A DNA stretch of 64,000 nt, from the IMG/VR virus record IMGVR_UViG_3300029858_000005, one strand, 5' to 3'. Below the pieces are notes generated by a model. The model was not told the DNA's origin, made no database searches, and saw only the letters and a list, made by a program, of their open reading frames with translations. The first letter of the stretch is position 1. Each line of letters starts with the position of its first letter. A program made the position numbers and the translations under genes. Shown piece by piece: positions 4,130 to 60,839 of this stretch. Source of the stretch: a virus.

Positions 4130-4262
4130 AATCTTTATTTTTTAAATATTCAACTTTAGTTACTAATTCTGTTACAACTTCTTTAGTAACAACTTGCTCT
4201 ACTGTTACATTACTTAGAACACTAGGCAAGGCAGCTCTATAAGAGCCACCCTGCGTTAATGC

Positions 4263-4568: not shown

Positions 4569-4576
4569 TTTCTTAA

Positions 4577-38209: not shown

Positions 38210-38259
38210 CCTAATCTCCCTACGCTTGTAGGGAACGAATAACCAAAAATATTAGAATT

Positions 38260-38394
38260 ATGAGTACGCTGAGAATTAAATGCCTCGATATGTGCGAGGT
38301 TGAGAGTATCATTGCAGATGCTCAGGAGATTTTGAGTCACGTAGAATTCGGGTCGCTAAAGAATGGTGTGCTTACATTATTCTGCGTGGCGTGA
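38260..38394 (+). CDS. hypothetical small protein (44 aa)
   Basis: Start cassette taaccaaaaatattagaattATG. The stop sits within TGAGCCTAA. Too short for the ORF track. Confidence 0.45.
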   Translation: MSTLRIKCLDMCEVESIIADAQEILSHVEFGSLKNGVLTLFCVA

Positions 38395-38465
38395 GCCTAA
38401 AAATCCGTAGCCAGTACGATAATTGTCGTGCGTGGCTACGGAACAATTACCAATATTTTAGAATT

Positions 38466-38699
38466 ATGAAAGCAAGACAGATCATTTATTCAAGTACGAT
38501 AATTGTGCTTGGATTTATTCAGAGTGCGCCGGCATTCATTTGCTTGGCAAGTACGATAATTCTCCTGAATGTGCTTGGAATTCTTTACGGAATTCTGCTT
38601 GTGTATATTTGGAGCAGTACGAAAAAGGGTAAGTGGTATTTCCGTGAGCTGTGGAGATCCACACTCCGCTTGGAGAATTTCATCCTTCCTGGAGTTTAA
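38466..38699 (+). CDS. small two-helix membrane protein (77 aa) overlapping AGTACGATAAT repeats
   Basis: Start cassette present. The track ORF starts earlier at 38391. The repeated DNA encodes STII three times. Confidence 0.45.
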   Translation: MKARQIIYSSTIIVLGFIQSAPAFICLASTIILLNVLGILYGILLVYIWSSTKKGKWYFRELWRSTLRLENFILPGV

Positions 38700-38801
38700 G
38701 AGATTTGGAAAGTACGATAATTGTGCTTGGAAACATTTAGCTAAATTCTGCTTGGAGAAATCCAGGCAGTACGATAATATAACCAATTAAATTACAGAAT
38801 T

Positions 38802-38999
38802 ATGAAGAAGAATATTTTCGTGGCATTGTTTGCCGTAGTGTGTGTTGCATTGTTTGTAGTATCAATTACTCTGTATAATTGTCACAGGGCGAACGTGATG
38901 CTGAGAAAGACTGTTATCAGCCAGGCTAACGAGATTTTGAAACTAAACGGCTGTCACACAGCAGAGGGAGGTACAACGTTCGTAGGTCTCAGAAAGTAG
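38802..38999 (+). CDS. small membrane-anchored protein (65 aa)
   Basis: Start cassette present. N-terminal hydrophobic helix. Confidence 0.55.
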   Translation: MKKNIFVALFAVVCVALFVVSITLYNCHRANVMLRKTVISQANEILKLNGCHTAEGGTTFVGLRK

Positions 39000-39062
39000 C
39001 CAAAAAATGTGCTCAGGCATTTTCCTGGGCATACTATGTAAAACCATTAAACAAATTGAATT

Positions 39063-39239
39063 ATGTTAGACAGAAAATCACAGAAGAATTTTGAGCGTGC
39101 GCTTATGCATGAGATGGAGAAGATCAAGATTGCAGCGCGCCAGTGGCATAGCAACAATACTAAGGGCTACAGAGATTATCGTAGCAAGAAAACTATCTCC
39201 AAGAGTTTCTCTGAGATTGCGGTATTGTGCATGAGCTAA
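39063..39239 (+). CDS. hypothetical small basic protein (58 aa)
   Basis: Start cassette aaaccattaaacaaattgaattATG. Preferred over the antisense track ORF 39078..39275. Confidence 0.45.
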   Translation: MLDRKSQKNFERALMHEMEKIKIAARQWHSNNTKGYRDYRSKKTISKSFSEIAVLCMS

Positions 39240-39287
39240 ATGTGCGTGACGATTGTCACGCATACTATTCACCAATATTTAAGAATT

Positions 39288-39578
39288 ATGATAGATGAAG
39301 AATACAAGGAGAATGTAGAGTACATACTCTCTACGATTTTGCCTAAGTTGCAGGAAATCCAAAAAAAAGTATTGAAAAATCAATCAAGACTGAGCCTTGA
39401 TGTTAGCGTTAGCAATAAAAACGGCGAAGGGTATATAAGTTGTTTTGCCTGTGTCATGAATGACATGGGAGAAATAACGGATACTTGTTTTCCACGTTTC
39501 ATCTGCGTATGCAGCAAAGAGGAGATGGACGAGCGGCTCAACGAGCTTAAAGAGTTCATCAAGAAGCACCTAACCTGA
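39288..39578 (+). CDS. hypothetical protein (96 aa)
   Basis: A start cassette marks the internal Met of track ORF 39240..39578. Confidence 0.55.
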   Translation: MIDEEYKENVEYILSTILPKLQEIQKKVLKNQSRLSLDVSVSNKNGEGYISCFACVMNDMGEITDTCFPRFICVCSKEEMDERLNELKEFIKKHLT

Positions 39579-39627
39579 AATTGAGGGAGTTATTTCTCCC
39601 TCTCCTATAAACCAAAAATGTAGAATT

Positions 39628-39897
39628 ATGAGCAAGTGGATTCAGTTTTATCATAAGATTAACAAGTTTGACCTTGTGAACATGAGATTTACGGATGATT
39701 TCAGTATCGTGGAAATGGTGGGCATGGATTCTGTCATGCCTATCGACGGCAGATTGAGTCTGTCATCCATACGTGATGTAGTACAAAAGAAAATCGAGAG
39801 CATGAAGAAAATCGAGAGTTTCGACCCTTGTGCGTTCTCCATCCTCACCGGTCCTACTATTCTGTGTGCTTCAGAAAGTCCGGTGTACAATCTCTAG
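39628..39897 (+). CDS. hypothetical protein (89 aa)
   Basis: Start cassette present. Stop within TAGCCAGA. Confidence 0.55.
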   Translation: MSKWIQFYHKINKFDLVNMRFTDDFSIVEMVGMDSVMPIDGRLSLSSIRDVVQKKIESMKKIESFDPCAFSILTGPTILCASESPVYNL

Positions 39898-39954
39898 CCA
39901 GAACTGGGCAGTACGATAATGCGCTGCCTGCTATTAACCAAAACAGAATATATT

Positions 39955-40119
39955 ATGACAGCAGAAGAAAAGACTCAGCTAGAGAAGCTTGTAGAAAAGT
40001 ATTTGAAAGAAGATGCGTACAAGCCACGAGGATGGGGAGAGAGAGCCGCAAGGAAGTTTCTCAGCGCATTAAATGGCGAGTGGCTTCTTACGTACAGCTT
40101 TAGACCAGATCCGGCGTAG
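39955..40119 (+). CDS. hypothetical small protein (54 aa)
   Basis: Start cassette at the internal Met of track ORF 39919..40119. Confidence 0.45.
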   Translation: MTAEEKTQLEKLVEKYLKEDAYKPRGWGERAARKFLSALNGEWLLTYSFRPDPA

Positions 40120-40164
40120 TTATTTGCTACGCCTCCAATTATTAACCAAATCAAAATTAGAATT

Positions 40165-40341
40165 ATGACAGACGGAGACAGAAAGTTCCTTGCCAGGCTC
40201 GTAGCGAGTCACAAGGCAGTTATCAGCGAGGAGTGCAGACGCAAGAATCTCGACAAGAGCGAGTATTTCAGACGCGTAGCGCGTGCAGACAAGAAGGCTC
40301 GGGAGATTGAGCAAGCGTGCATGAGTCCTCGCAAATTCTAG
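40165..40341 (+). CDS. small DNA-binding candidate (ribbon-helix-helix-like, 58 aa)
   Basis: Hand translation gives MTDGDRKFLARLVASHKAVISEECRRKNLDKSEYFRRVARAD... The KSEYFRR segment resembles RHH/MobC-type motifs. Start cassette present. Confidence 0.4.
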   Translation: MTDGDRKFLARLVASHKAVISEECRRKNLDKSEYFRRVARADKKAREIEQACMSPRKF

Positions 40342-40402
40342 CCAAACATTCTGTGCAGTCTATCTGCACAGAAACCATGTTAAACCATAAAAATGTAGAA
40401 TT

Positions 40403-41296
40403 ATGAAGAAAATTGTTAATACATTTACGAAGATTTTCGTACGAGACGGAAAGCGTCACAGAATTGTCGCTGTCGCTTCTTTAGGTGATGAGTGCAGAAA
40501 TAACATCTGCACTTTCTCTATTACAGGTCAGATAGATATTTTCTGTTTCGGTTCATGGCACTGCAAAACCTGCGGTTGCATTACAGACGAGATATGCAAA
40601 TTCTTTCCGGAATTGAAGCCATTTGTAAATCTTCACATGTGCAACTACAAGGGACAGCCATTCTATACTGTTGATAATGGCATTTACTATGTATCCCAAA
40701 GTAAGGAGATTGCTATGCGTAATCTCAGAATTACCGAGGATGAGTACGAGGCCCTGCTCCCTGCTGCCGAGCTGAACGACAAGGACTATTTTGTCTATAA
40801 GCTGTTCAAACTTGGCATCGTTAAGAGATGGAAGTCTGAAGCAGACAAGTTCATTGAGTTTCTTCTTCGCCAAGGAGGTGAATGGGAGAATCCATACACT
40901 ATCAGCGACGAAAGACCGACAATTAAGCTGACCGGAGGCATAAGAGCTCTTGTAGAATCCAGACTCAAGAAAGGATACTACACGAAGGAAAATATTGATA
41001 AGATATTGCAGCAAAGAAGAGCTGACGAAATCAGCAAGAAACGTCAGTCTGTAATTGAAGAGTTCTACAAGAAGACCGAAAAAGCTCGCAATGAGCGTGA
41101 CGTGATGCTTTACATTCTTGACCACGGTCTTTCTATCGGTAACGTGATTTATTACGATTACAACAACACCGTGAAGTTCAACTGGCTCGATTACAAGGAG
41201 CAGATTACGAAAGAACAGTTCGAGAATTTTATTGGGAACTTAGATCCCAGCAAGTTGCCTGAGGGTATTAAATTCTCAATCGACATCAAGAAGTAG
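40403..41296 (+). CDS. hypothetical protein (297 aa, N-terminal Cys cluster)
   Basis: Track ORF with start cassette. Confidence 0.65.
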   Translation: MKKIVNTFTKIFVRDGKRHRIVAVASLGDECRNNICTFSITGQIDIFCFGSWHCKTCGCITDEICKFFPELKPFVNLHMCNYKGQPFYTVDNGIYYVSQSKEIAMRNLRITEDEYEALLPAAELNDKDYFVYKLFKLGIVKRWKSEADKFIEFLLRQGGEWENPYTISDERPTIKLTGGIRALVESRLKKGYYTKENIDKILQQRRADEISKKRQSVIEEFYKKTEKARNERDVMLYILDHGLSIGNVIYYDYNNTVKFNWLDYKEQITKEQFENFIGNLDPSKLPEGIKFSIDIKK

Positions 41297-41351
41297 CCAA
41301 CCAATCCTCACTACAACGGGTGGGGATTTCTATTAACCAAATATTAGAATT

Positions 41352-41690
41352 ATGATAACGGATTACTACACAGCCGTACACTGGCTAAAAAGTGCGTTCA
41401 TCCTCTGTAACGAGATTGTAGAGAATGACGAATCAGTGATTGAAAACATCGAGTATCCAGAGATGACAGAAGAAGAAAGGAACAGAATCGAGATATTCCA
41501 GTGGTTCCTCACTAACATGAGCGAAGAGGATAAGGAATGGATGCAGAAGAATTTCCCTGATCTTATCTTCTCTTACTCAGACAAGCTTGACTTGTGGATT
41601 CTTTGCGTAGATCATTTTGGAACGATGTGGAAGGGAGTCCCAACGACTACCAACTGCGAGAATGCGGCAAAGGCTAGCCAGCTGCCGTAG
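41352..41690 (+). CDS. hypothetical acidic protein (112 aa)
   Basis: Track ORF, flanked by two near-identical cassettes. Confidence 0.6.
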   Translation: MITDYYTAVHWLKSAFILCNEIVENDESVIENIEYPEMTEEERNRIEIFQWFLTNMSEEDKEWMQKNFPDLIFSYSDKLDLWILCVDHFGTMWKGVPTTTNCENAAKASQLP

Positions 41691-41748
41691 CCAAACCAAT
41701 CCTCACTCCCATGGGTGGGGATTTCTATTAACCAAAGATTACAGAATT

Positions 41749-41988
41749 ATGAGTGATTTAGAGAAAATCCTGAATGACGATTTACTGAAGTGTAAAATCG
41801 TTGAGTCAGTAGAGAATCCCGTTAGGCGTGTGGACCTTATCAAGTGGACGCACGACAATACATACTCTATTGCTGAGGTACGCAAGGATACCGGTAAGCT
41901 AGAGGTCACAGACTTGAAAGCTGCCAGTGGTCTTGATGCATACAAGCATTTCTACAGAAATTATGGCGACATTGCCATATGTGGCTAA
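41749..41988 (+). CDS. hypothetical protein (79 aa)
   Basis: Start cassette at the internal Met of track ORF 41617..41988. Confidence 0.55.
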   Translation: MSDLEKILNDDLLKCKIVESVENPVRRVDLIKWTHDNTYSIAEVRKDTGKLEVTDLKAASGLDAYKHFYRNYGDIAICG

Positions 41989-42041
41989 AACTCCCCACAC
42001 CATTGTGGGGAACCATTATGAACCATTAAAACAGATGAATT

Positions 42042-42581
42042 ATGGAAAAGAATATTGTAGAAGTTGTTATGAATAACAAGGGTGAAGTTGTCGAGAAAGT
42101 AGCCGATTATATCGGTGTGGCAAGTTTTGCCGCGGTTATCGAGAGCCTCTATCGTGAGTGTCTTGAAAATTTCGATGACGCAGAGGATCTGGAAGAATAC
42201 ATTGCAGATGTATTCGAAAAGAATATCCAGTCTCTTGCGTGGGAGTTTACCCACAAGGTAAACAGAGAGATGAAGAAATATCTCCATCTTAACGACCAGC
42301 GCATGGATGGTAATTTTGCCAATCTGTACAACGATTATCCTAGACACGTTACAGGTACGTTCTGGGCGACGGACTACGATGGCGACGATTACTACGATTT
42401 GTATCCTCAGATGGTAGCCAGACTCGATTCCGCAGAGGACAGCGAGCAGGCGAACGAGGATAGAGCGTACCTAGAGGAATGGTATTTCAAGGCGTTCGGC
42501 ACGTACAACATCAAGTACAATTTCTCGAATGAGCTTGAAGAGGTTCACTCCATGATGGAGGAAGATTATGAGGAAGCCTAA
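42042..42581 (+). CDS. hypothetical highly acidic protein (179 aa)
   Basis: Track ORF with start cassette. The D/E/Y-rich composition could fit a DNA mimic, but this is unproven. Confidence 0.6.
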   Translation: MEKNIVEVVMNNKGEVVEKVADYIGVASFAAVIESLYRECLENFDDAEDLEEYIADVFEKNIQSLAWEFTHKVNREMKKYLHLNDQRMDGNFANLYNDYPRHVTGTFWATDYDGDDYYDLYPQMVARLDSAEDSEQANEDRAYLEEWYFKAFGTYNIKYNFSNELEEVHSMMEEDYEEA

Positions 42582-42636
42582 CAATATCCCCTAGCATGGG
42601 GATATTCAATGTTAAACCATTTAAATGATATTAGAT

Positions 42637-43479
42637 ATGAGTTACGAATTTGCAAAGAAAGAAATCGGCGATTACAGAATCACCATTTATCAGGATGAGA
42701 ATGCCGAATGCCCTTGCTCTGCATGGGATTTGGCAGGCGTATATCTTTGGGAGTATACCAGTTGCGGTAGTGGAAGATTAAGTAACGGCTGTAACTGGGA
42801 TGAAATATACGACAGAAAATACGACACTAATAACCACAGTTTGCAGGATGCTCTTCGTGAGCTTGTATACATGTACGTTCCGCAGAATCGTCTTGTAAAA
42901 TATCTGAAGAGCAACAAGCATCGCTCTGCCAAATTATCGTATGATAGAAGCTCTCATGTTTGGGAACTTGATTATTACGACAGCAGAGAGGCATACAAGA
43001 CTTCGGTAGAGTTTACTCCTGACGAAATCAAGAACTATGAAATGAGAGCAGAGATGATCGAGCCTATGAACAACGAGGACTTGATATGGCTGCTTGATGA
43101 CATAGCTTACGAAATCGTGATATACGAGTGGTCTTCTACGGGATACTGCCAGGGAGACTACGTAGAAGGCATTGCCTATTGCGACAAGGAGCGCTTCAAA
43201 AAGATGGTTGATACAAATACCAAGAACTGGAAGAATCGCGCTATCGAGCTGTTTGAGAGCGAAGTCAAGGATATTGGTATGTGGATGTGGGGTGATGTAA
43301 AAAGTTACGTCCTAGAAAAGAAACGCCCGTATACAAAATTGTACGAGGACGGTAAATCTTCTGATTCCTACGAGTGGAAGCAGATTGAATCCTGTTGCGG
43401 AGAGTACTTCGAAGATGCTGATGACCTCATCGAAGAGGTTATCAAGGAACACGGCTTACAGCCGAAAGATGCAGCCTAA
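42637..43479 (+). CDS. hypothetical protein (280 aa)
   Basis: Track ORF 42625..43479. The ATG at 42637 matches the ttagatATG cassette. Confidence 0.6.
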   Translation: MSYEFAKKEIGDYRITIYQDENAECPCSAWDLAGVYLWEYTSCGSGRLSNGCNWDEIYDRKYDTNNHSLQDALRELVYMYVPQNRLVKYLKSNKHRSAKLSYDRSSHVWELDYYDSREAYKTSVEFTPDEIKNYEMRAEMIEPMNNEDLIWLLDDIAYEIVIYEWSSTGYCQGDYVEGIAYCDKERFKKMVDTNTKNWKNRAIELFESEVKDIGMWMWGDVKSYVLEKKRPYTKLYEDGKSSDSYEWKQIESCCGEYFEDADDLIEEVIKEHGLQPKDAA

Positions 43480-43527
43480 CAAGGGGAGCTTGCATGCTCC
43501 TCTTCCATTAACCAATTAAATAGAATT

Positions 43528-43788
43528 ATGGGAAAGATTACAATTTCGCAGAAGGGAAGTAGAACTATCTACAGAGTGAACAGAAGAATCGTGTGCTATC
43601 GTGACGGGCACAAGTATTGTGTGGGCAAGCCATCATCTGGCAGCACCCATATCGAGCTTGATGCCTTGTCCGAGAATATTGCACACGAGAGATGCATTGA
43701 GATTTGTGAGCGTAGAATCAATGCGGAGATGAAGTATCAGAATCCTGTCGCATACAACGCCCACAGAGTATTGAACGCATTAGCCTAA
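43528..43788 (+). CDS. hypothetical protein (86 aa)
   Basis: Track ORF with start cassette. Confidence 0.55.
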   Translation: MGKITISQKGSRTIYRVNRRIVCYRDGHKYCVGKPSSGSTHIELDALSENIAHERCIEICERRINAEMKYQNPVAYNAHRVLNALA

Positions 43789-43841
43789 AAACGGAGGGAG
43801 CAATCCCTCTGACATTATTAACCAATAAATTATTAAGAATT

Positions 43842-44249
43842 ATGGATAAAAAAGAAATGTGGAAAGTACTTGGACGTGACGATTACGCACACAAGTCTCA
43901 AGAACTGAAAAAAAAGTGCGAGGAACTGGCGAAAGCTATATGCGATAAGCTCATTGAGCTTGACATGACAGAAATCTTCATCCCTCGCTGTGGTATTACC
44001 TTCAGAGTTATTACCGTGCAAATAAGTTGTGTTAAACGCATTCTTCTTGCGCTAGAGAGTGGCACCATTTACTATTTGTTGCAAGAGTTTGATATATGCA
44101 ACATACATGCTGGTGACCTTAATGTGAAGGTTGGCCGCGTAGTAGATGCACTTAGTTTTGTTACTCACTTGGACGAGATATTACAAGAAATATCGAAGAT
44201 TGAGGACAAAGAAGTCGCAGACATCGAAGCTGCTCTCAAGAGACTCTAA
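43842..44249 (+). CDS. hypothetical protein (135 aa)
   Basis: Track ORF with start cassette. Confidence 0.6.
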   Translation: MDKKEMWKVLGRDDYAHKSQELKKKCEELAKAICDKLIELDMTEIFIPRCGITFRVITVQISCVKRILLALESGTIYYLLQEFDICNIHAGDLNVKVGRVVDALSFVTHLDEILQEISKIEDKEVADIEAALKRL

Positions 44250-44259
44250 CATCTATCAT

Positions 44260-44301
44260 CCGTGAGCGACAGGCGCACATCGGGTTCGAGACCCGACACG
44301 G
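44260..44301 (+). other. tRNA-like minihelix (closing stem plus small hairpin plus T-arm-like hairpin)
   Basis: ccgtg-a-[gcg acagg cgc]-aca-[tcggg TTCGAGA cccga]-cacgg. Confidence 0.3.
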
Positions 44302-44329
44302 AACAATATTAACCAAAATTACAAGAGTT

Positions 44330-44557
44330 ATGAAGAGATATTACGTATCAGTCACAGAGCATTTAAACAAGGTAGTCAGCGTTGATGCTGAGAGTGAGAA
44401 TGAAGCCGTACAGAAAGTGCAGGATGCCTATAATAATAGCGATATTATTCTTGACGCTGACAATTTCTCAGGTGAGGTTATCGAGATCGAACCAGATCAG
44501 GAGTACTGGAGAGAATCCGAAGAGGATGACAGCGCAGCACTCCAGCATATCGACTAA
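44330..44557 (+). CDS. hypothetical acidic protein (75 aa)
   Basis: Track ORF with start cassette. Confidence 0.55.
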   Translation: MKRYYVSVTEHLNKVVSVDAESENEAVQKVQDAYNNSDIILDADNFSGEVIEIEPDQEYWRESEEDDSAALQHID

Positions 44558-44609
44558 GCCTAAAAAGAGAGGGTAGCTCCCTCTCACAATAACCAAAACA
44601 AGAAGAATT

Positions 44610-45875
44610 ATGAATGAAGACAGAATCCTAGAGATGTTCTTCGAAAAAGCCAGATGGCAGTATGCTATCGAGAAAGGCTTATTCAAGGACATGAACAAAG
44701 CAGTAATGTATCAGCTGACGACACCGGAGGCTCGTCTGGCTATGTATCAGAGGATCAAGAGCGGCAATTACAAGATAATGCCGCCACACACAGCGAAGAT
44801 TCCGAAAGACAACGGAGATTTCCGCACTGTCTATGTGAATGAGGCTGTGGACAGAATCCTCCTGAGCATAGCCAACGACCTCCTGTTCGAGCTGATGCCA
44901 GAGATGGTGCATTCACGCTGCACGTCATACCAGAAAGGTATCGGCTGCGGCCGTGTTGTACAAGATGTCTCTCATATAATATACTCGGCAGATGGTAGAA
45001 TCATCGGATTCAAGTCCGACTTATCCAAGTACTTTGACAACGTGCCTATCCGATTCATCGACTGGGCATTTGACAGAGTAGAGGAGAAGTGCGGAAAATC
45101 TGCACTGATAGATGTCATCCGTGACTACTATCACACAGATATCTATTTCGATGAGGACAATAACCTCTGCGAGAAGTATCAGTCCCTCAAGCAGGGATGC
45201 TCTGTTGCCGCATGGCTGGCTGACGTGGTTCTATACCATATCGATGAGATGTTGTCGAGTCTGAACGGATATTACGTCCGTTACTCAGATGATATTCTCT
45301 TCGTTGGCGAGGACTACGAGAAAGCCATGGATATACTGAAGAGCGAGCTGGAGAAGATGCAGATGACGCTCAACCCGAAGAAGGTTGAGTATCTTGACGC
45401 AAATCACTGGTTCAAGTTCTTGGGATATTCCATCAAGGGTCACAATATCTCTCTGTCGTCCACACGTATCAAGACCTTCCAGAAGGAGATTGAGAAAAGG
45501 ACGATAAAGAAGCGTGATACTACGATGACGAAAGCCGTCAATGCTGTAAACAGGTATCTCTACAAGGGGTACTGCGATTACTCCTGGGCTACTCAGGTTC
45601 TTCCGGTCATAAACGTGAAAGAGGACATCGACAAGCTCAACACCTTCGTCATGGACTGCATCCGTGCGGTCAAGACAGGCAAGAGAAAGATCGGTGGTCT
45701 CGGATACGTGAAGACTCAGGCTGTAGGTTGCATAGACCGAGGTCGTGGAAGGAACGTGAAAGCCAACAGGAGTAAGACAGAGAGCGAAATCAAGGGGTAT
45801 CTATCGATAGGTTGTGCTCAGAATGCCTTGCGAACGAGCAGGGCAGCGTACAACACATTGGTGAATACTTTGTAG
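44610..45875 (+). CDS. reverse transcriptase, group-II-intron-like (RT domains 1-7 plus thumb/X-like region; no endonuclease domain)
   Basis: RT motifs seen: IPKDNGDFRTVYV (RT1), SYQKGIG (RT2a), FKSDLSKYFDNV (RT3), LKQGCSVAAWLADVVLYHID (RT4), YVRYSDDILFVG (RT5, YxDD), LNPKKVEY (RT6), FKFLGYSI (RT7). VNRYLYKGYCDYSW is X-domain-like. Confidence 0.9.
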   Translation: MNEDRILEMFFEKARWQYAIEKGLFKDMNKAVMYQLTTPEARLAMYQRIKSGNYKIMPPHTAKIPKDNGDFRTVYVNEAVDRILLSIANDLLFELMPEMVHSRCTSYQKGIGCGRVVQDVSHIIYSADGRIIGFKSDLSKYFDNVPIRFIDWAFDRVEEKCGKSALIDVIRDYYHTDIYFDEDNNLCEKYQSLKQGCSVAAWLADVVLYHIDEMLSSLNGYYVRYSDDILFVGEDYEKAMDILKSELEKMQMTLNPKKVEYLDANHWFKFLGYSIKGHNISLSSTRIKTFQKEIEKRTIKKRDTTMTKAVNAVNRYLYKGYCDYSWATQVLPVINVKEDIDKLNTFVMDCIRAVKTGKRKIGGLGYVKTQAVGCIDRGRGRNVKANRSKTESEIKGYLSIGCAQNALRTSRAAYNTLVNTL

Positions 45876-47160
45876 ATGAGCATCCTAGCGCAGGGATTTT
45901 GCCGGAATGAAGATACAAGGTTTTAAATATCCCGGTTGCGGAGTACAGGGACCATCTAATACCTAGATGGTCCTCTGTTCGTCCTAAACCGGGCATTATC
46001 AATCTGATATAGCTATGCGCAGCATCTTCTGACCGGCAGACTCTGTAACCGAGCACACGGACGTGGGAGAAGGACGGACAGATTCAGGCAACGCCTCTAT
46101 AACATCATCTGATTGATCCAGCTATCCAAGTTTACAACTTGAGACAGCTGGATCATTCATATGGCACAAGGCGTAGCTCATCAATGAAGTACAGAGATGT
46201 GCCGGTCCGCATGACTCTCGCAGGTGGCGCACACCACCACTCACTGACGGATGGCAATAGTTTATGAAACAGGTCTCTTAACCAGACTCTGGATCCTGGT
46301 AACACCCGGATCCTGAGTCTGGCGAATCCTGTGTCAAATCAGAAACATAAAGTATTGTGCCGAGCCATCGGTCAGGGAATCACCCTAACACGAGGGTAGT
46401 CTTTAAAGGAGAGTGAATTTATGAGTGCTGTTTACATGCCGCCGGTGTGGCCGGCGGCTTACAACAGCCCTCGAATCAAGCTGTTATAGCTACGTGCCAC
46501 GCTCTCAGATGAAGACAACGTTATTGCCAAACGAGGTACACGAGGAGGAATTCTTTATATCACGAGCTTTGTAACTCGCGGGGAGGCATCCTTAGAACAA
46601 CGATGCTCCCCGCGATATCAGCTCCCTCAATCGCCAAGATAGAGATAGACAACAGACCTATGAGTGTACCTACAAACAACCAAAGTGAATTGCATCACGA
46701 CTTATCAAGAGTATGAGGTTTAATATCCCGTAAGGTGGAATACCTGTGCCTGCCGATATCTCCGCAGGCACAGGTATCCAGTCACGGGACCGAATCAAGA
46801 ACATATATCCATGCAACATAATACATGAGATAAGTCATTCGCATTGCAGCGATGTCTGGCAAGTTCTGAGAGTTCATCGAGCGTTTCATTGATTCTGAAG
46901 CCAAGGATGTGGAAGCGTACGCTTCCTGAGGTTGGCTTCATAACAATGCCACGCCCTTAATCAAAAACTTAAAGCAATGCAACGTATCAGGTTGAGTCAG
47001 ACTAGGTTATTGCGAGCCGAATGGTGCGCAAGGAGAATAGATTGTACAATACGGTATCAATCATCCTGAAGATCCAGGTGGTTACCTGGATCTGTCAGGA
47101 CTTAGATACAGTATTAATCAAGACCTTATAGTTACGCAACAGATTCTCTGAGCGCACTCC
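45876..47160 (+). ncRNA. ~1.3-kb ORF-free, hairpin-dense region downstream of the RT: candidate large structured ncRNA
   Basis: No ORF of 60 aa or more lies wholly inside on either strand. All three stop codons occur in all frames. Perfect or near-perfect stems at 45949-45973, 46115-46154, 46282-46322, 46438-46458, 46577-46614, 46741-46776, 46897-46939 and 47065-47099. Confidence 0.5.
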
Positions 47161-47182
47161 TATTAACAAATATTTAAGAATT

Positions 47183-47428
47183 ATGAACAGCAAATTACTA
47201 AAGAAGCTTGAGGAAATCAAGAAAGAGTACGAAACGTCAGAAGTTTGCATGGGCGAGATGCTTGATTCAGTAAGTGCAGACGGATTATCTGTCGAGGATG
47301 CACACTGGTTGTATATGCGTGCAATGGAGTGGGCGAACGGAGATAAATTCTATATCCACATTGGAGAAGACGAAGACGTACTGAGTAAGGATGAACTCGA
47401 AGAAGCCAATTTGATAGTGCTAGAATAA
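47183..47428 (+). CDS. hypothetical acidic protein (81 aa)
   Basis: Track ORF with a variant start cassette (TTAACAAA). Confidence 0.55.
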   Translation: MNSKLLKKLEEIKKEYETSEVCMGEMLDSVSADGLSVEDAHWLYMRAMEWANGDKFYIHIGEDEDVLSKDELEEANLIVLE

Positions 47429-47460
47429 GCACTATCCCTATTAACCAATACAATAGAATT

Positions 47461-47913
47461 ATGACATACGACGAGATTATCAATGCAGTTGAGAATGGTG
47501 CTAAGTTCATCATCAACTTCCAGAAGAGAACATGTAGGGTGAATGGTAAGATAGTGATGTCCGAGGAAGATAAGCCGAAAGATACACCTTACCTGACACA
47601 TGCAGTAGTCCTGTTCGCAATAGAACAGAGATATAAGGCATACAAGCATTCTGTGCCATCAGAGCGTTCCGAATCCCATCGCCGCTACTACTTCAAGGCT
47701 TTGCCAGAGAAAGAGCTCACAGACGAAGATATGATGTATGGTGAGCGACGGGAGGTAGCGAGATGCAAGCTAGAACTATACGTCCTTATGCAGCTGCTCA
47801 GAGGAAACCTTGCATGGGAGAACAGATGGGGCAGATGGTTCTGGAAGTCAGAGAACGACAAGGATCTGATTATCCTCAGAGACTGGGTTGAGCCAAACAA
47901 GGGTGGGGCGTAA
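47461..47913 (+). CDS. hypothetical protein (150 aa)
   Basis: Track ORF with start cassette. Confidence 0.6.
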   Translation: MTYDEIINAVENGAKFIINFQKRTCRVNGKIVMSEEDKPKDTPYLTHAVVLFAIEQRYKAYKHSVPSERSESHRRYYFKALPEKELTDEDMMYGERREVARCKLELYVLMQLLRGNLAWENRWGRWFWKSENDKDLIILRDWVEPNKGGA

Positions 47914-47970
47914 GCCTCATCCACTAGAGTTAAATAAATTTTTAGTAACCAATTTAAAATAATTAGAATT

Positions 47971-49041
47971 ATGAAGCAGATTGTAACAATCACTGGTGAG
48001 AACTTGAACATCGTAACAAAAAACGTAGAGGCTACAGCAGCTACCCAGAAGACCAAGGCGCAGATGCGTCTCGAAGCTCTTAAGGCAGCAGGCGTTGATA
48101 CTAGTAAATATTTCCCTCTCGGTGACGACCAGCTTATCAAGATCGAAAATGGCGCAGCAGTTCCTGTAGACATGGACGATGCAACCATCGATGCGGTAGG
48201 CAAGCAGATTGTCGAGGGTGGATACGTAAGCAACTGGAAGCTCTTCCGTCGTTGGGTGATGAGTCAGATGTTCCACATGTTGCGAGACATGGATAAGAGT
48301 TATCTGTCATTCAACGAGGTGTTGCAGCACAAGGGCTACGAGTATCAGTGGCGCATGTTGGAGAACGAGCTGCATGCTCAGATGAAGATGTGTGACCACA
48401 AGGATTACGAGAACACCAAGGCGAGAAATCGCTGGTTCAACGGCTGCGTAGCACACGATATGGCTATTGACTATATTAACAAGCTTCGCAGCTATATTGA
48501 CGACAAGTGCATCTACACTACCAAGATAGACAAGGATGGAAAAAAGAAGAAGACATACAAGCATACCTGCAAGGGTAATCCTTATATCCGTCTTCAAAAC
48601 GAAAACATCTTCGTCGCTGACTTGGAGAGAAAGGTATACAATCCTCTCCGTGACCTTGCCAACAAGATGGGGGCTGTACCGACCTACACCTACAAGGAGC
48701 TCTACGATGCAGTTCGCGAGTTCAACAAGAACCGCAAGCATCTCGCATGGGATACCAAGCAGGCAGATGCATTCATTCATGCTTACAAAGGGTCTGGTTC
48801 CTACTACACGATGAGAAACCTCATCATGTTCCATGGAGCAAGATTCATGAAGAACGGACGAAAGATGTCAGAGGCCAATTCTCTGAAGGAGCTTGAGTCT
48901 AAAGCCAAGCTCTACGATGAAGAGGGTTGGAAGATGCTCGGTGTACTCAAGCAGCTTATCAAGGACAATAATATAAGCGTCCAGGGCAAGATTCTTGAAT
49001 GGAAGAAAGCCAAGAGCGAGAACAAGGAAGAGGTTCAGTAG
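47971..49041 (+). CDS. hypothetical protein (356 aa)
   Basis: Track ORF with start cassette. Confidence 0.65.
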   Translation: MKQIVTITGENLNIVTKNVEATAATQKTKAQMRLEALKAAGVDTSKYFPLGDDQLIKIENGAAVPVDMDDATIDAVGKQIVEGGYVSNWKLFRRWVMSQMFHMLRDMDKSYLSFNEVLQHKGYEYQWRMLENELHAQMKMCDHKDYENTKARNRWFNGCVAHDMAIDYINKLRSYIDDKCIYTTKIDKDGKKKKTYKHTCKGNPYIRLQNENIFVADLERKVYNPLRDLANKMGAVPTYTYKELYDAVREFNKNRKHLAWDTKQADAFIHAYKGSGSYYTMRNLIMFHGARFMKNGRKMSEANSLKELESKAKLYDEEGWKMLGVLKQLIKDNNISVQGKILEWKKAKSENKEEVQ

Positions 49042-49262
49042 GACGTAAGGTTCGCCACCTAAAGAATGGTGGCTCGGCAGCAATTCACAAGAGCTTCTTC
49101 AACGAAGGATCTCCTCCAGTCACTACTGGAGGTAATCCTTCGAGCTAAAGCTCTCTAGATCGAACTTATAGAGTAAGGCGCCAGCCGGGGACCATTTTAG
49201 CCAAAAGTCGGTTACTGATTCGGTAACCGATTCGAAAAGTTTAACCAATAAAATTAAGAATT

Positions 49263-49658
49263 ATGAAGGAAATTAATGTAGACACAAGAGAGTATATTAA
49301 GGCTCTTATTGACGGGAAGAATGTCGTCGAGGAATCACTTCTAGACGCAATCTTTGACGATTCGCAATATCTCACCAATAAGTTTTTTTCATTGGGATTT
49401 GTAGGAGGCGCACCTACAATGATAGAGTATCACGGAAACTACCTATCTATCAGGAAGCTTCGATCGTGGATTACATCAGAGTGGGGTAGAGAGATTGTCA
49501 AACGACTGACTGGCGAATCAAAAAATAATATATACTATTTCGAGACGAAGCAGTATCTCGACGAACGCCAGGCTGAGCCTTTAATCTATACATTCTTTCT
49601 GAGCACAGATTACCTTACTGTAAGATTTCACTACAATGTAAAAGTAGATGAAGATTAG
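49263..49658 (+). CDS. hypothetical protein (131 aa)
   Basis: Track ORF with start cassette. Confidence 0.6.
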   Translation: MKEINVDTREYIKALIDGKNVVEESLLDAIFDDSQYLTNKFFSLGFVGGAPTMIEYHGNYLSIRKLRSWITSEWGREIVKRLTGESKNNIYYFETKQYLDERQAEPLIYTFFLSTDYLTVRFHYNVKVDED

Positions 49659-49709
49659 CCAAACATGTCAGTCGTTAGCAGCGGCTGACTACTCATATCA
49701 TAACTAAAT

Positions 49710-49758
49710 TTTGTTTAAATGGTTCAAGCCGGTCTGTCGTGAGACACGCCGGTTTTTT
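49710..49758 (+). terminator. TTTGTTTAAATG motif plus 13-bp hairpin with GTGA loop plus T-run (copy 1)
   Basis: aagccggtctgtc-gtga-gacacgccggttt(ttt). It contains a 7-codon ATG..TGA mini-ORF. Confidence 0.5.
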
Positions 49759-49792
49759 GTTCCACAAGTTTAACCAATTTTAAATTAGAATT

Positions 49793-50497
49793 ATGAGTAG
49801 AAATTACTGGACATTAGGTAAGGAAGGAATTAAGACTCGTCTGTCAAAGGCACAGGCAGCTTACGAGAACGCATTGGAGAATGTAGAGAACCTGCACGTC
49901 AAGATCAGTGATGGCAACAACAAGTTGGGAGCAATCCCATCTGTTTCGCTCATCCCGGTCATGGATTGCGGTAACTGTGCAATCTGTGCCAAGAGCTGCT
50001 ACGACCTGCGTAACGACCTCATCTACAAAGAGGTCGTCAAGACTAGAGCTATTAACTCCGCAATCTATCACGTGGATCCTGAGCGATACTTCAAGGAGAT
50101 TGATGACTACCTCAACTACCGCTATCCTAGAGCATTCCGATTCCACATCGGAGGCGACATCCGGGACAAATGGTATCTTGACAAAATGTGCGAGATTGCT
50201 CGCAAGCATAAGGATACCAAGTTCCTTGCGTTCACGAAGATGTTCGATGTGTGCAACGAGTATCTCGATGAGGGCAACGTAATCCCTGGGAACATGCACA
50301 TTCTCTTTTCGGGGTGGCTTGGTCTCAAGATGGATAACCGCCACGGATTTCCGGAGGCGCATCCTATCTTCGAGAGCGGAACGTCTGCTCCGGAAGGAAC
50401 ACGTCTGTGTACCGGGAACTGCACAGAGTGTCTGAAGGAAGATAGGTTGTGCTGGTCTATCGGGAAAGGTCAGGCGGTAGGATTCCTTGCACACTAG
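49793..50497 (+). CDS. GP88-family-like Cys-cluster protein
   Basis: KLGAIPSVSLIPVMDCGNCAICAKSCYDL...FRFHIGGDI...FLAFTK resembles the phage GP88 domain pattern (SLP..TCPG...C...CYA...GD...TK), recalled from memory. Confidence 0.4.
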   Translation: MSRNYWTLGKEGIKTRLSKAQAAYENALENVENLHVKISDGNNKLGAIPSVSLIPVMDCGNCAICAKSCYDLRNDLIYKEVVKTRAINSAIYHVDPERYFKEIDDYLNYRYPRAFRFHIGGDIRDKWYLDKMCEIARKHKDTKFLAFTKMFDVCNEYLDEGNVIPGNMHILFSGWLGLKMDNRHGFPEAHPIFESGTSAPEGTRLCTGNCTECLKEDRLCWSIGKGQAVGFLAH

Positions 50498-50556
50498 CCA
50501 AAAGCCTCGTCGAAACGACGGGGTACTATGTTTAACCAATTAAAATTTTGTGAATT

Positions 50557-50991
50557 ATGGCATCAGCAAGAAGAGGTACAAGAATGCTCAAAGCTTCCGA
50601 CATTATGAAGAGAAAGGGCATTGTCCAGAAACAGATGGACATGGACAAGTTCAACGAGGTTGTAGAGAATTTCTTTATGACCCATGAGCCTAAGGAGACG
50701 ATTCTCCTTACTCCGAAGAGATTCATCGAGATGGATAACCCGCCAAATGGAGACTTCATTGACTATCTCGATGTCAGCGTGTGGAAGAAGAGAAGCGAAG
50801 ACCCAAATGACCCGTTCGACTTCATCGACTTTCAGTACATGAAGAAGAACGGGATGCTCCGTCCTATCCTTATAGTGAACGAGCCTTTCATCGGCAATGC
50901 TGCCGGGTGGCTGAGAGATTTTTGTGGATTCACTGTGAAGAACAGAACACGAAAGAAGAAGAAGGAATATATCGTGTCTCTGCCGGTGTAA
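50557..50991 (+). CDS. hypothetical protein (144 aa)
   Basis: Track ORF with start cassette. Preferred over the antisense ORF 50563..50997. Confidence 0.55.
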   Translation: MASARRGTRMLKASDIMKRKGIVQKQMDMDKFNEVVENFFMTHEPKETILLTPKRFIEMDNPPNGDFIDYLDVSVWKKRSEDPNDPFDFIDFQYMKKNGMLRPILIVNEPFIGNAAGWLRDFCGFTVKNRTRKKKKEYIVSLPV

Positions 50992-51054
50992 AGCCAAACA
51001 ATGCGTGGAACATTCTGTTTCACGCTCCTAGTATTAACCAATTAAAATAGAGAT

Positions 51055-51423
51055 ATGGAAGATTTAGAAAGATTCAAGAAGTTTGTCAGAGAGAACAATC
51101 CTATGGTTCCTGACTTGTTGCAGGAGTTTGAACCAGTCCGCAAGATCGATTCCGTAGAAGATATCAACGATTGTGACTGGATTCATCTAATGGATGAGTA
51201 CGATGCGGCGAACATCACCTGGAAGGCTCAGATGATGGCGCAGGAAGTCGAAGATGCGCTCGGCAGCGATGAGTACACCTGCCACATACAGGAATACCCG
51301 AAGAGCGGCCGTATAGGTGTTATCATCGATGGAACACAAGAGTTCCTTGGCAAGAAGAGCGAATGCGAGAATTATCTTCAGGGGCTCCTTAGAGCACTGG
51401 AAATCACAAAGGAGAATCACTAA
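51055..51423 (+). CDS. hypothetical acidic protein (122 aa)
   Basis: Track ORF with start cassette. Confidence 0.6.
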   Translation: MEDLERFKKFVRENNPMVPDLLQEFEPVRKIDSVEDINDCDWIHLMDEYDAANITWKAQMMAQEVEDALGSDEYTCHIQEYPKSGRIGVIIDGTQEFLGKKSECENYLQGLLRALEITKENH

Positions 51424-51479
51424 GCCGAACAAGCCTGCCTGGAACGGTGGGCATCAAGTTAAACCAAAATATTAAGATT

Positions 51480-51998
51480 ATGAAGAGAAAAGTATTGAAA
51501 GACAAGATTGATGAGTTGCGTTCAACAGCAAAGATGGAACTTGCATGCACCATCCGTGAGATAATGAGAGAGCACAATGTGAGCAGAAAGGTGTTCGATT
51601 GGCCTGTACTTGCCGGCGACAACAGGGAGGTGAATATCGTAGAAGTAGGCGACAGCGAAACAGCTATCCCTATCATTCATAGCCGATGCACTTCTGTAGG
51701 GTTTGAGTTCCCGGAAGCAAAAGCTATCGATGACGATATACCAGTTGACCTTCTTGCAGACATCGCTACTAGTCTGAACGACGAGCTGAACGGCTATATC
51801 GGTGTCTATGCTGCAAAGTATAAGATTGCCTACAATGATGGAATTTTCATTCCTAAGGAGAATCCGTACGTATTCCGGGCAGAATCATATAAAGATGCAT
51901 TGGATGAGGCGGAAGACTACATGCGTGTGTGGAATGACCATAATGGTTCTACCCTAAGACTCGTGTCAGTCGAGAAGCAGACTGCTTCGGAAGGTTAA
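51480..51998 (+). CDS. hypothetical protein (172 aa)
   Basis: Start cassette at the internal Met of track ORF 51447..51998. Confidence 0.6.
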   Translation: MKRKVLKDKIDELRSTAKMELACTIREIMREHNVSRKVFDWPVLAGDNREVNIVEVGDSETAIPIIHSRCTSVGFEFPEAKAIDDDIPVDLLADIATSLNDELNGYIGVYAAKYKIAYNDGIFIPKENPYVFRAESYKDALDEAEDYMRVWNDHNGSTLRLVSVEKQTASEG

Positions 51999-52047
51999 AT
52001 TAGCGTTAAAAACGGCAAAGACGATGGTTTATATTATAAACTTTTCG

Positions 52048-52055
52048 TATCTTTG
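52048..52055 (+). promoter_or_regulatory. -7 promoter motif (TATCTTTG) in front of the internal recombinase gene
   Basis: It lies in the right arm of an imperfect inverted repeat (52014-52024 / 52045-52057). The loop of that repeat contains GGTTTATAT. Confidence 0.4.
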
Positions 52056-52081
52056 CCACTAGTAACCAAAATTATAGAATT

Positions 52082-53101
52082 ATGACAGAAGAAATAAGAA
52101 TCAAGACAAGAGATTGGGAGAGACTTCTGAGCTACACTCAGCAGCAGAAGTACAAGACTGCCATCAAGCAGGGTTGGTTCGCCAATTATCACGGCAACTC
52201 GTGGAGGCATGACACGTTCTATGGCGCATACATCTGGAAATACCCGAAACTTATTAAGGTTGTAAGGATGTTCGAAGAGATGCTTGGACATAAGCCATTA
52301 TGGGAAGACATCACCGACGACAATCTGCGCGACCTCTATGAGAAGATTCAGGAGAACTACGCTCCTAACTCGGCAAGAACCGTATGTGCAACCATCAAGG
52401 CCGTGATACGTGAGAACGATGCTACCAGGGAAATTCCTAGTCCTACGTTCGGCAGAATACTTAGAGCGAAGGCTGTACCGGTTCAGTCTGTATATCTCTC
52501 TGATGAGGAGATAAACAGGATCATCAAGTACAACCCTCACGGGAAAACAAAAAGATATGTTCAGAGAATGTTTATCATGGAATGTCTCTGTGGCGCACGT
52601 TACAGCGACTGCCAGAGGATGACGGAAGAGAACATAGATGATACCGGACACTTCCTCGTGTATGTTACTCAAAAGACAAAGACCGAGGTAAGGGTTCCAC
52701 TTCACAAGAAGCTCCGTAAGTTCCTCGTATGCGGCACTGGTGACGAGCCTCTTCCGGGTGAGATAGGTGAAAGGACGTTCAATAGAGCACTCCGCGATAT
52801 CTGTCGTGACTGCGGAATAGATACGAATACAAAGGTGTTCAAAGCTGGAAAGGAAGAGACAGGAAAGAAGTATCGGTTCGTATCATCCCATACGGGCAGA
52901 CGCTCGTTCGCAACGAATCTCTCAAAGAAGGGAGTACCTCTTGAGCAGATTGCCGTCATGATGGGACATACCAGTAACGGTATGCCTAATATACAGATGA
53001 CACAGCGCTACATTGTCGGTAAGACCGAGATTGACAGCAATACACTGAGATTGTTCGGCGTCTATGAAGAAGACCTCGATAACGGTCTAGATGAGGATTA
53101 A
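52082..53101 (+). CDS. tyrosine recombinase (second, internal copy)
   Basis: Catalytic-type residues seen: CGARYSD (Arg), SSHTGRRSF (His-x-x-Arg), MMGHTS (His), TQRYI (Tyr). Confidence 0.8.
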   Translation: MTEEIRIKTRDWERLLSYTQQQKYKTAIKQGWFANYHGNSWRHDTFYGAYIWKYPKLIKVVRMFEEMLGHKPLWEDITDDNLRDLYEKIQENYAPNSARTVCATIKAVIRENDATREIPSPTFGRILRAKAVPVQSVYLSDEEINRIIKYNPHGKTKRYVQRMFIMECLCGARYSDCQRMTEENIDDTGHFLVYVTQKTKTEVRVPLHKKLRKFLVCGTGDEPLPGEIGERTFNRALRDICRDCGIDTNTKVFKAGKEETGKKYRFVSSHTGRRSFATNLSKKGVPLEQIAVMMGHTSNGMPNIQMTQRYIVGKTEIDSNTLRLFGVYEEDLDNGLDED

Positions 53102-53164
53102 GCTAAAACTGGAGGTGGCCAGCTGCCATCTCCTGCCATTGTTTAACCAATTAAAATAATGATT

Positions 53165-53587
53165 ATGGTAGAAGATTATACAGTAGAAGAGTTGAATAAA
53201 CTCATCAATGAGTGTCGGAAGAAGTACGAAAAGCTAGAAAAGGAGACCGTCATGAAGGCTCTGACTGGCGAGATTGGTACGAACTCCGCAATGGTGGAAG
53301 AGTTGGAGATACTCAACATCCACTATCACGATGAAATGGATGAGTACGATATAACTGCACCTGACCTGAATCCAGATCTTATCGATAATTTCAAGAGGGC
53401 AGAGCGTGATGGCAAGAACGTCATCTTCGAGGCACAGGAATATCTTAAGATCCTGGGAATGTGCGAAGAAATGTTCAACCAGAAGCTATGGGTCAACGAA
53501 GATGGCCACATATGCGATGAAGAAGGTAATAGACTTTCCGCCGACAGAGAGCATCGTGTTTTCGAAGTTGTTAAGTGCGGAAAATAA
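53165..53587 (+). CDS. hypothetical acidic protein (140 aa)
   Basis: Track ORF. The ATG at 53165 matches gattATG. Confidence 0.55.
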   Translation: MVEDYTVEELNKLINECRKKYEKLEKETVMKALTGEIGTNSAMVEELEILNIHYHDEMDEYDITAPDLNPDLIDNFKRAERDGKNVIFEAQEYLKILGMCEEMFNQKLWVNEDGHICDEEGNRLSADREHRVFEVVKCGK

Positions 53588-60359: not shown

Positions 60360-60839
60360 ATGAAAGAAAGATTAAAAATGATTTTCGACCGCATCGACAT
60401 CTTTGTCGTGTGCATTGTCATCGGGCTATGCTTCTGTATTGTGGAAGCCTTTCTTGGAATCTGGAACATGTTTGCTGATTGCTTCTTCATAACTCTCCTT
60501 GCTACCGAATGCTGCTACATCCTCCGCTGCAAGGAGAAGCTTCAAATAGAGCTGATAGAGACAAAGGAGAAGCTGAAGGAGGCAGAGAAGAATGCAAATG
60601 ATAATCTCTTACAGCTGCATCAATATTCAAGATATGCTAGTTTAGTATGCCTGTACAGGAATTTATGGAGAGAAAAATGCCGCTTAGCGGAGGCTAAGGT
60701 TCTCTACTGTAAGAGAAAGCTTACTACAAGTGGCCTATTGGAACATATGAGGACTCGCGAGGAAAATATAGCCGATATCGAAAAATGTATCCAACGAAAT
60801 ATAGTCGATTTCGAAAAATGTATCCAACGAAAAAAATGA
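60360..60839 (+). CDS. membrane-anchored coiled-coil protein
   Basis: 159-aa ORF. The C-terminus carries the duplication IEKCIQRNIVDFEKCIQRKK. Confidence 0.55.
   Translation: MKERLKMIFDRIDIFVVCIVIGLCFCIVEAFLGIWNMFADCFFITLLATECCYILRCKEKLQIELIETKEKLKEAEKNANDNLLQLHQYSRYASLVCLYRNLWREKCRLAEAKVLYCKRKLTTSGLLEHMRTREENIADIEKCIQRNIVDFEKCIQRKK

Follow-up and report, generated by a model that had tools for sequence, protein, structure and literature searches.

The window analysed here, a 64,000-nt stretch of viral DNA (IMG/VR record IMGVR_UViG_3300029858_000005), carries terminase, portal and major capsid genes together with an integrase and a D5-like primase, which identifies it as part of a tailed phage genome. 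Within it, an interval free of open reading frames (ORFs), 45876-47182, separates the stop codon of a reverse transcriptase (RT) gene at 45875 from the next start codon at 47183. The neighbouring genes, all of which lie on the plus strand, are the following.

44610-45875, plus strand: RT gene of the UG27 family (Class 2 UG/Abi), 421 aa, recognised by PADLOC RT_UG27, Pfam RVT_1 and the motif YSDD
47183-47428, plus strand: small ORF of 81 aa from the ORF list, no family match
47461-47913, plus strand: RTas346, UG27-associated protein (PADLOC RTas346, E = 1.3e-60)
47971-49041, plus strand: RTas337, UG27-associated protein (PADLOC RTas337, E = 3.7e-112)

Residues 3-421 of the RT align with positions 2-420 of the 420-position PADLOC RT_UG27 profile (E = 4.7e-225); the protein also matches Pfam RVT_1 (E = 1.4e-19), and its catalytic YSDD motif is intact, reading YVRYSDDILFV in the translation. 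Matches to this RT come from more than 4,600 protein clusters. Among the other PADLOC models, Drt9 (E = 3.6e-27) and UG17 (E = 6.4e-27) score better than Drt2 (E = 6e-14), and the nearest characterised relatives of the RT are Drt9/UG28 and UG17, that is, DRT10. Clusters 346 and 337, by which UG27 systems are defined, are both co-located with the RT. The profiles of the two proteins gave no credible match in PDB sequences or Pfam, the proteins contain no recognisable domains, and their predicted structures are poor (pLDDT 57 for an AlphaFold2 model of RTas337 built from a shallow alignment; pLDDT 42 for a single-sequence prediction of RTas346). The small ORF between the array and RTas346 has no PHROG, Pfam or PADLOC match and is absent in about 20% of close relatives (gap fraction 0.17-0.23); it is possibly an accessory gene and probably lies outside the core of the system. 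What an initial annotation of this DNA had described as flanking early genes are thus the UG27 RT upstream and RTas346/RTas337 downstream, an identity that it had not recognised, and it is this context that defines the nature of the RNA.

The RT recurs at 94-99% identity in genomes of Segatella copri, among them the complete chromosome of strain HDD04, and the terminase shares 57% identity with its counterparts in LoVEphage-like temperate phages of Bacteroides. These similarities indicate a temperate phage or prophage of S. copri.

The interval is non-coding and unusually structured. Its longest ORF with a start codon encodes 50 aa, and among 57 non-redundant relatives its substitutions are distributed evenly over the three phases (3637/3822/3510), without codon periodicity, in contrast to those of the RT gene (1065/812/5577). 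Likewise, 85% of 1506 indel events in the array are not multiples of three, and the RT gene has none of this kind. The lack of coding potential claimed in the initial annotation is therefore borne out, and the gap is ORF-free as far as 47182. Every 200-nt window from 45800 to 47199 folds well below its dinucleotide shuffles (z ≤ -2), with a mean z of -3.5 on the plus and -4.0 on the minus strand in the region, compared with -1.9 and -1.1 in the flanks. All eight hairpins that the initial annotation had listed are present at the stated coordinates, and the recurrence of GATCCAG/CTGGATC at 46115 and 47071 is real. The enrichment in G+C suggested at the same time is modest: the region (0.47-0.505) exceeds the downstream genes (0.41-0.45) but not the upstream RT gene (0.47-0.49). 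A search for tRNAs and tmRNAs found none, and a nucleotide search of GenBank phages with the region and its 12-kb context returned no match. A scan for sigma-70 promoters and intrinsic terminators, which is ill-suited to Bacteroidota, gave counts at shuffle level and no plus-strand terminator.

A tandem array of homologous modules

In the consensus fold of a 57-sequence alignment (A1), long stem-loop domains follow one another, each with a closing helix of its own, and one pattern fits the alignment of seven of these domains. Beginning 20 nt past the RT stop codon, the segment 45895-47162 comprises eight homologous, co-oriented modules of 126-167 nt arranged head to tail; the median module length across the family is 154 nt. 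A covariance model of the sixth module alone finds all eight, in register and on the plus strand, and with R2, a generic module covariance model, the array modules score between 30 and 138 bits. The duplicated domains at which the initial annotation had guessed are accordingly these eight modules. A ninth lies beyond RTas337.

45895-46043, plus strand: module D1, full-length match to R2 (54.4 bits, E = 6e-12); tip hairpin 45941-45980 with 7 covarying pairs
46059-46225, plus strand: module D2, 30.6 bits (E = 7e-6); the most diverged of the modules, its tip hairpin carrying a long insert
46238-46381, plus strand: module D3, 61.7 bits; tip hairpin 46282-46322 with 10 covarying pairs
46395-46520, plus strand: module D4, 66.8 bits; tip short here and about 25 nt longer in most relatives
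46531-46674, plus strand: module D5, 42.2 bits
46696-46839, plus strand: module D6, 138 bits; holds the 13-bp stem
46850-47006, plus strand: module D7, 69 bits; present or absent among close relatives
47019-47162, plus strand: module D8, 97.3 bits; 19-bp closing helix 47023-47045/47136-47158, last module before the next gene
49060-49201, plus strand: ninth module, 3' of RTas337, 21.8 bits (E = 1e-3, filters off)

The modules are separated by short linkers of 10-20 nt, some of which contain small hairpins. In D2, helices 46063-46069/46215-46221 and 46103-46111/46158-46164 covary; in D5, pairing in the closing helix 46534-46541/46664-46671 is 100% canonical, with covariation in the inner helices. 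The ninth module is kept in 76 of 80 close loci, where its 50 pairs are 99.3% canonical and 6 of them covary.

A common anatomy was drawn from 111 independent modules. Each is closed by two basal helices with a conserved CAAGG/UGAG internal loop between them, and each bears a long hairpin whose tip is free in sequence and length, with pairing that is almost strictly Watson-Crick. On the 3' side of this hairpin, between it and the basal helices, lies a single-stranded segment of about 35 nt, which carries a near-invariant motif in fixed register, AUC-R-N6-UA-N-AG-NN-A-Y-G-Y-R-N-C...UGA. A0, U1 and C2 are conserved in 106-110 of the 111 modules and U10, A11 and A13 in all 111; G14, A17, G19 and C23, followed by U32, G33 and A34, complete the motif.

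The fold is supported by compensatory change. In D6 (34 sequences), 14 of 40 pairs show double compensatory changes, and 98.3% of cells are paired, compared with 88.9% in shuffles (0 of 500 reaching the observed value); double-change cells number 124 versus 40 in shuffles (0/500), and sliding the partners against each other lowers pairing to 27-43%. A cross-module MAFFT alignment analysed with RNAalifold gave no consensus structure, and model-guided alignments (A3, A7 and A8) were used in its place. Among 43 diverged modules, whose RTs are 57-70% identical, 84.7% of cells are paired versus 44.6% in shuffles (0/500), with 693 double-change cells versus 226 (0/500); A7 and A8 were fitted to the model structure, so that pairing counts from them are somewhat inflated. 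Helices 1, 2, 4 and 7 are 93-96% paired in the diverged modules, where almost all of their positions show the four Watson-Crick types, and model helices 3 and 8 find no support in this set. Taken together, the tests on D6 and on the 43 modules support a conserved structured RNA.

Although model fitting favours pairing in the 43-module set, the set still exceeds its shuffle and slide controls by a wide margin.

The strand of the RNA is less evident from the region as a whole. The RNAalifold energy is -545 on the plus and -562 on the minus strand, and wobble statistics over all shared pairs do not decide between the two (G.U versus A.C, 341:267). The tip hairpins, with 624 Watson-Crick, 8 G.U and 12 A.C cells, show no strand asymmetry. 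G.U and A.C stand at 25:3 in the basal helices of diverged modules, which favours an RNA of the plus strand. Because of this excess, the plus-strand neighbours and the common orientation of modules and RT, we infer that the plus strand is the one transcribed.

The pattern of variation among close relatives separates two components of the module. Over 80 close IMG/VR loci, the region is conserved at 80-97% nucleotide identity in a mosaic pattern, in which the linkers and stem bases are conserved and the hairpin tips vary yet stay paired. Nucleotide diversity (pi) rises from 0.115 outside the tips to 0.264 within them, compared with 0.154-0.231 at third codon positions of the three flanking genes. 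The framework is under purifying selection, and the tips drift as fast as synonymous sites, or faster, with their pairing kept.

Copy number and distribution of the array

Arrays of about 2-8 modules were found next to the UG27 genes in all divergent loci tested. At eight viral loci outside the training set, all 34 matches fall on the RT strand, with 2-4 modules directly upstream of RTas346 and 1-2 more after RTas337. In 30 independent loci from Bacteroidales genomes (Segatella, Bacteroides, Alistipes, Muribaculaceae, Butyricimonas and others), arrays of about 5-8 modules start from the RT stop codon and 170 of 174 matches are on the RT strand; the other 4 are partial matches to a palindromic hairpin, and full-length matches occur on the RT strand only. 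Searches of IMG/VR with two distant RT queries found nothing. BS-TP1, the one cultured phage with the system, has a 1,350-nt array that is unannotated and an RT that is annotated as a "tail protein".

Gene order is informative as to the partners of the RNA. In loci L081-L086, the RT and the array have several ORFs between them, but the array still adjoins RTas346, and in locus L091, where the genes are rearranged, the array follows RTas337. The array thereby tracks RTas346/RTas337 at least as closely as the RT, and because it follows these genes so closely, RTas346 or RTas337 could be its primary RNA-binding partner. Among close relatives, modules are gained, lost and swapped one by one: D7 is missing in roughly a quarter to a third of the close loci, six loci have another module in the place of D6, and D1-D5 are all absent from a natural variant (L064). 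More generally, the UG27 RT/RTas346/RTas337 set of temperate Bacteroidales phages is constantly accompanied by module arrays.

Relation to known RNAs and alternative explanations

An RNA of this kind has been described before. Mestre et al. (2022, NAR, PMC9226505) found UG27 in 1,447 dereplicated gut phage genomes, together with clusters 346 and 337, and reported in the same intergenic region a putative conserved ncRNA with "three long stem-loops", which is targeted by CRISPR spacers. The locus analysed here shares with that description the RT family, the two clusters, the intergenic position and hosts among gut Bacteroidota, and all features of UG27 systems given there were found: the RT profile, 346/337, a structured intergenic ncRNA and encoding by a gut phage of Bacteroidota or Firmicutes. 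The element is a member of this already described kind, a UG27 RT-associated ncRNA. It differs from the published outline in number, with eight modules and a ninth in place of three long stem-loops, and with about 2-8 at other loci plus 1-2 after RTas337. In a recent preprint (bioRxiv 10.64898/2026.09.22.753630, dated 2026-09-24), UG27 is mentioned 74 times and cDNA 24 times, with 10 occurrences of "ncRNA array" and two of "UG27 ncRNA array"; to judge from these term counts, the array organisation has very probably been reported already. Publication is unconfirmed for the module map, the support of individual helices, the invariant motif, the module after RTas337, the range of copy numbers and the selection pattern. 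Rfam 15 contains no family for UG27 RNA.

Two further classes of RT-associated element were considered for the locus and rejected. For a group II intron, there is no Rfam match, and the TIGR04416 score of 105 bits compares with a cut-off of 300. For a diversity-generating retroelement, no repeat of at least 30 nt links the region to any gene of the window, as a TR/VR pair would, and the variation in the hairpins is compensatory on both arms, not adenine-specific.

A close comparison is with the ncRNAs of DRT2/UG2, DRT9/UG28 and DRT10/UG17, which serve RTs of the same class. In Class 2 UG systems, a dedicated ncRNA serves the RT as scaffold and also as the source of a short single-stranded template, which two anchored stem-loops frame, in complexes of very different oligomeric state (1:1, 2:1 and 6:6; bioRxiv 10.64898/2026.06.29.735271). 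Like the modules, these are dedicated structured ncRNAs, of about 150-300 nt, in which stem-loops frame a conserved single-stranded segment. The differences concern arrangement and setting. DRT2, DRT9 and DRT10 have one ncRNA, usually upstream of the RT, whereas UG27 has a tandem array downstream; they serve bacterial defence, and their effectors or products are known (Neo, poly-dA, and 7-nt repeats plus SLATT), whereas UG27 is phage-encoded, shows no enrichment in defence islands (PMC9226505) and is partnered by RTas346 and RTas337, which have no recognisable domains. In DRT10, moreover, an A-B-A' microhomology resets the template; in the single-stranded segment of the 111 UG27 modules, 4-nt direct repeats at distances of 4-14 occur at shuffle level, and the template role proposed here therefore rests on analogy.

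We conclude that the element is genuine and conserved and that it is linked in function to the RT. It is a UG27 RT-associated tandem ncRNA array, and it is likely, in our assessment, that its modules are RT-binding, template-bearing units like the single ncRNAs of Class 2 UG systems; given their common general layout, equating one module with one Class 2 unit is the most economical reading. In this model, the array would be transcribed with the operon from the plus strand, and each module would be the counterpart of the single ncRNA in DRT2, DRT9 or DRT10. The stem-loops of a module would bind the RT and the conserved single-stranded segment would be offered as the template window for cDNA, so that by analogy each module is probably both scaffold and template for RT-driven cDNA synthesis. 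Concatenation would provide several RT-binding and template units from one transcript, acting either in cis as a multivalent scaffold or, after processing, as monomers.

If the emphasis is placed entirely on processing, the array becomes a precursor only, cut into ncRNAs of about 150 nt that would each act alone with an RT, much as DRT2 and DRT9 have one ncRNA per RT, and the 1.3-kb molecule would have no function itself. This reading has an appreciable, though less than even, probability. It accords with modules that fold autonomously within their own closing helices, that are gained, lost and swapped singly, that range from about 2 to 8 with the system kept throughout, and that also stand alone, apart from the array, after RTas337; the units are also set apart by short linkers, some bearing small hairpins. 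However, the units are densely packed and no processing signal or nuclease was identified. A different output is envisaged if the RT copies each variable hairpin into a hairpin ssDNA, with priming close to the conserved G after the closing helix, so that every phage would make its own set of distinct small ssDNAs. The topology recalls a retron msr-msd, an RT-linked RNA with a closing duplex, an adjacent conserved G (just inside it, in CAAGG) and a long variable hairpin; in addition, the tips evolve at or above the synonymous rate with pairing kept, and their near-absence of wobble would fit a need for both the RNA and its DNA copy to fold. It would equally fit replacement of whole stems, and recent divergence could also leave the tips strictly Watson-Crick. 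Retrons have one upstream msr-msd per RT and an RT of the retron clade, whereas the UG27 RT matches retron models only at E = 1e-10 to 1e-13, compared with 1e-225 for its own family, and its RNA is a downstream array; a retron was rejected on these grounds. As the characterised Class 2 relatives furthermore copy short single-stranded windows and not hairpins (bioRxiv 10.64898/2026.06.29.735271), the retron-like reading is considered unlikely.

The two remaining alternatives dispense with modular RNAs for the RT. The region could act as DNA, as repeated protein-binding units or hairpin repeats in replication, partition or packaging, for example as an origin built of large iterons. Its direct repeats, about 140-190 bp long and sharing an invariant motif in fixed register, the near-symmetric wobble and slightly better minus-strand RNAalifold energy of the whole region, and its location among early or replication genes, with a D5/primase-like gene present, would all suit such an element. 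Against this, helices whose two arms lie about 130 nt from each other show covariation that includes all four Watson-Crick types, which requires the folding of a single strand and not recognition of duplex DNA. The plus-strand G.U excess of the basal helices points in the same direction, the element always travels co-oriented with the RT gene set in phages of different families (PMC9226505), and the relatives of the RT are all ncRNA-dependent, making a DNA-level function very improbable. The initial annotation had likened the region, in size and ornateness, to large phage-associated RNAs such as GOLLD and ROOL, and the last alternative is a single large, globally folded RNA in the class of GOLLD, ROOL and HEARO/omega RNAs. 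The size of about 1.3 kb, the many stems and the link to a phage are indeed shared with those RNAs, and the view of a non-coding, structured, phage-associated RNA candidate stands. The single fold does not: the Rfam search proposed at the time gave no match at the gathering threshold across the whole window, and the region yields only chance matches to miRNA hairpins at E ≤ 10. Those RNAs have a single fold, unlike the repetitive modular array found here, in which eight homologous units explain the whole length, no conserved helix joins one module to another (the sole predicted one has 3 bp) and the array persists with 3 to 8 units, with D1-D5 lost in L064. Next to no credence is therefore given to this class.

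Implications for UG27 systems

UG27 is the one large family of UG/Abi RTs that is found in phages, not in bacterial defence islands, and it is very abundant in the human gut. The present analysis adds the anatomy of its RNA, namely the module boundaries, the helices that are and are not supported and the invariant single-stranded motif, as well as the variable copy number (about 2-8, plus 1-2 after RTas337) and the finding that the array follows RTas346/RTas337 as closely as it follows the RT. Two tractable systems are available for its study: Segatella copri HDD04, which has a complete genome and carries such a prophage, and BS-TP1, a cultured phage of Bacteroides. A more far-reaching possibility, which we likewise regard as unlikely, is that the concatenated units assemble a multi-RT particle on one transcript and that the tips are copied into phage-specific hairpin ssDNAs for use in phage-host or phage-phage conflict. 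If true, this would amount to a retron-like output from a non-retron RT, and UG27 would bring a new architecture to the Class 2 UG RTs, of which it would be the first to act for the benefit of a phage.

Base pairing in the array and in the RT gene

The tip hairpins, the variable outer parts of the long hairpins in the structured RNA modules, are paired almost exclusively by Watson–Crick pairs. Across the tip stems of the eight tandem modules downstream of the UG27 reverse transcriptase (RT) gene (D1–D8; window 45941-47100) and an alignment of 43 diverged modules, only 8 G.U and 12 A.C combinations were found among ~640 cells. G.U use in the basal helices is ordinary (25 G.U versus 3 A.C). Such near-strict Watson–Crick pairing in the tips is unusual if the constraint were on the RNA only.

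In its 5' part, the RT coding sequence contains another long hairpin (-87 kcal/mol), at window 44690-44910, with a z score of about -6.3 on both strands. Pairing remains 98% canonical across 59 distinct relatives, among which just three pairs covary, and these weakly. This hairpin might be an RNA element that overlaps the open reading frame.

Natural variants of the module array

Related loci differ in module content. L064 (6251-6784) lacks D1–D5 and retains three modules; in six loci (L002, L010, L041, L057, L058, and L062) another module occupies the D6 position; and D7 is present or absent depending on the locus, with many lacking the equivalent of window 46836-46959. Together, these variants would provide a ready-made deletion and swap series. 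In L107, from Leyella stercorea, two modules precede the RT gene in addition to the downstream array, which indicates that module position relative to the RT is not fixed.

Modules in variant loci (locus-internal coordinates)
~7136-7282, L002, module in place of D6
2032-2175, L107, module upstream of the RT gene
3786-3930, L107, module upstream of the RT gene
4001-5266, L107, RT gene

The system also occurs in a cultured virus, Bacteroides phage BS-TP1 (PQ571274.1), where the UG27 RT (79351-80613) is annotated as 'tail protein' and the 1,350-nt module array that follows (80614-81962) carries no annotation.

Gene-start motif and other repeats

Nearly all + strand early genes (window 38239-53179) are preceded by a ~30-nt motif, TTAACCAA-N(8-12)-AGAATTATG, whose ATG serves as the start codon of the gene. 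Within the array, it was found solely at the 3' end, ahead of the next gene.

Example sites of the motif (window, + strand)
39599
40374
43499
44309
44589
47154
47432
49239
49769
51459
52053
53144

The host of the phage lacks Shine–Dalgarno sequences. The motif looks like a phage-specific gene-start signal, acting as a promoter and/or in translation initiation.

Within a 48-nt direct repeat (41299-41346 and 41694-41741; 92% identical), CCTCAC...GGGTGGGG forms a G+C-rich hairpin that precedes the TAACCAA gene-start motif; the repeat may be a terminator–promoter cassette between early genes. The ninth module is followed immediately by a perfect hairpin of 10-12 bp, GTCGGTTACTGATTCGGTAACCGAT (49196-49232); an intrinsic terminator scan, a method ill-suited to Bacteroidota, called it on the minus strand alone. 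A 33-nt unit occurs in two tandem copies (94% identical) close to an ORF end, at 60764-60829.

Lifestyle and possible role

The window encodes a tyrosine integrase (52082-53101), and a near-identical RT locus resides within the complete chromosome of Segatella copri HDD04 (NZ_CP152484.1, 917321-926583); together, these indicate that the phage is temperate. UG27 shows no enrichment in defence islands (PMC9226505), yet it could conceivably serve in prophage-encoded superinfection exclusion or defence.
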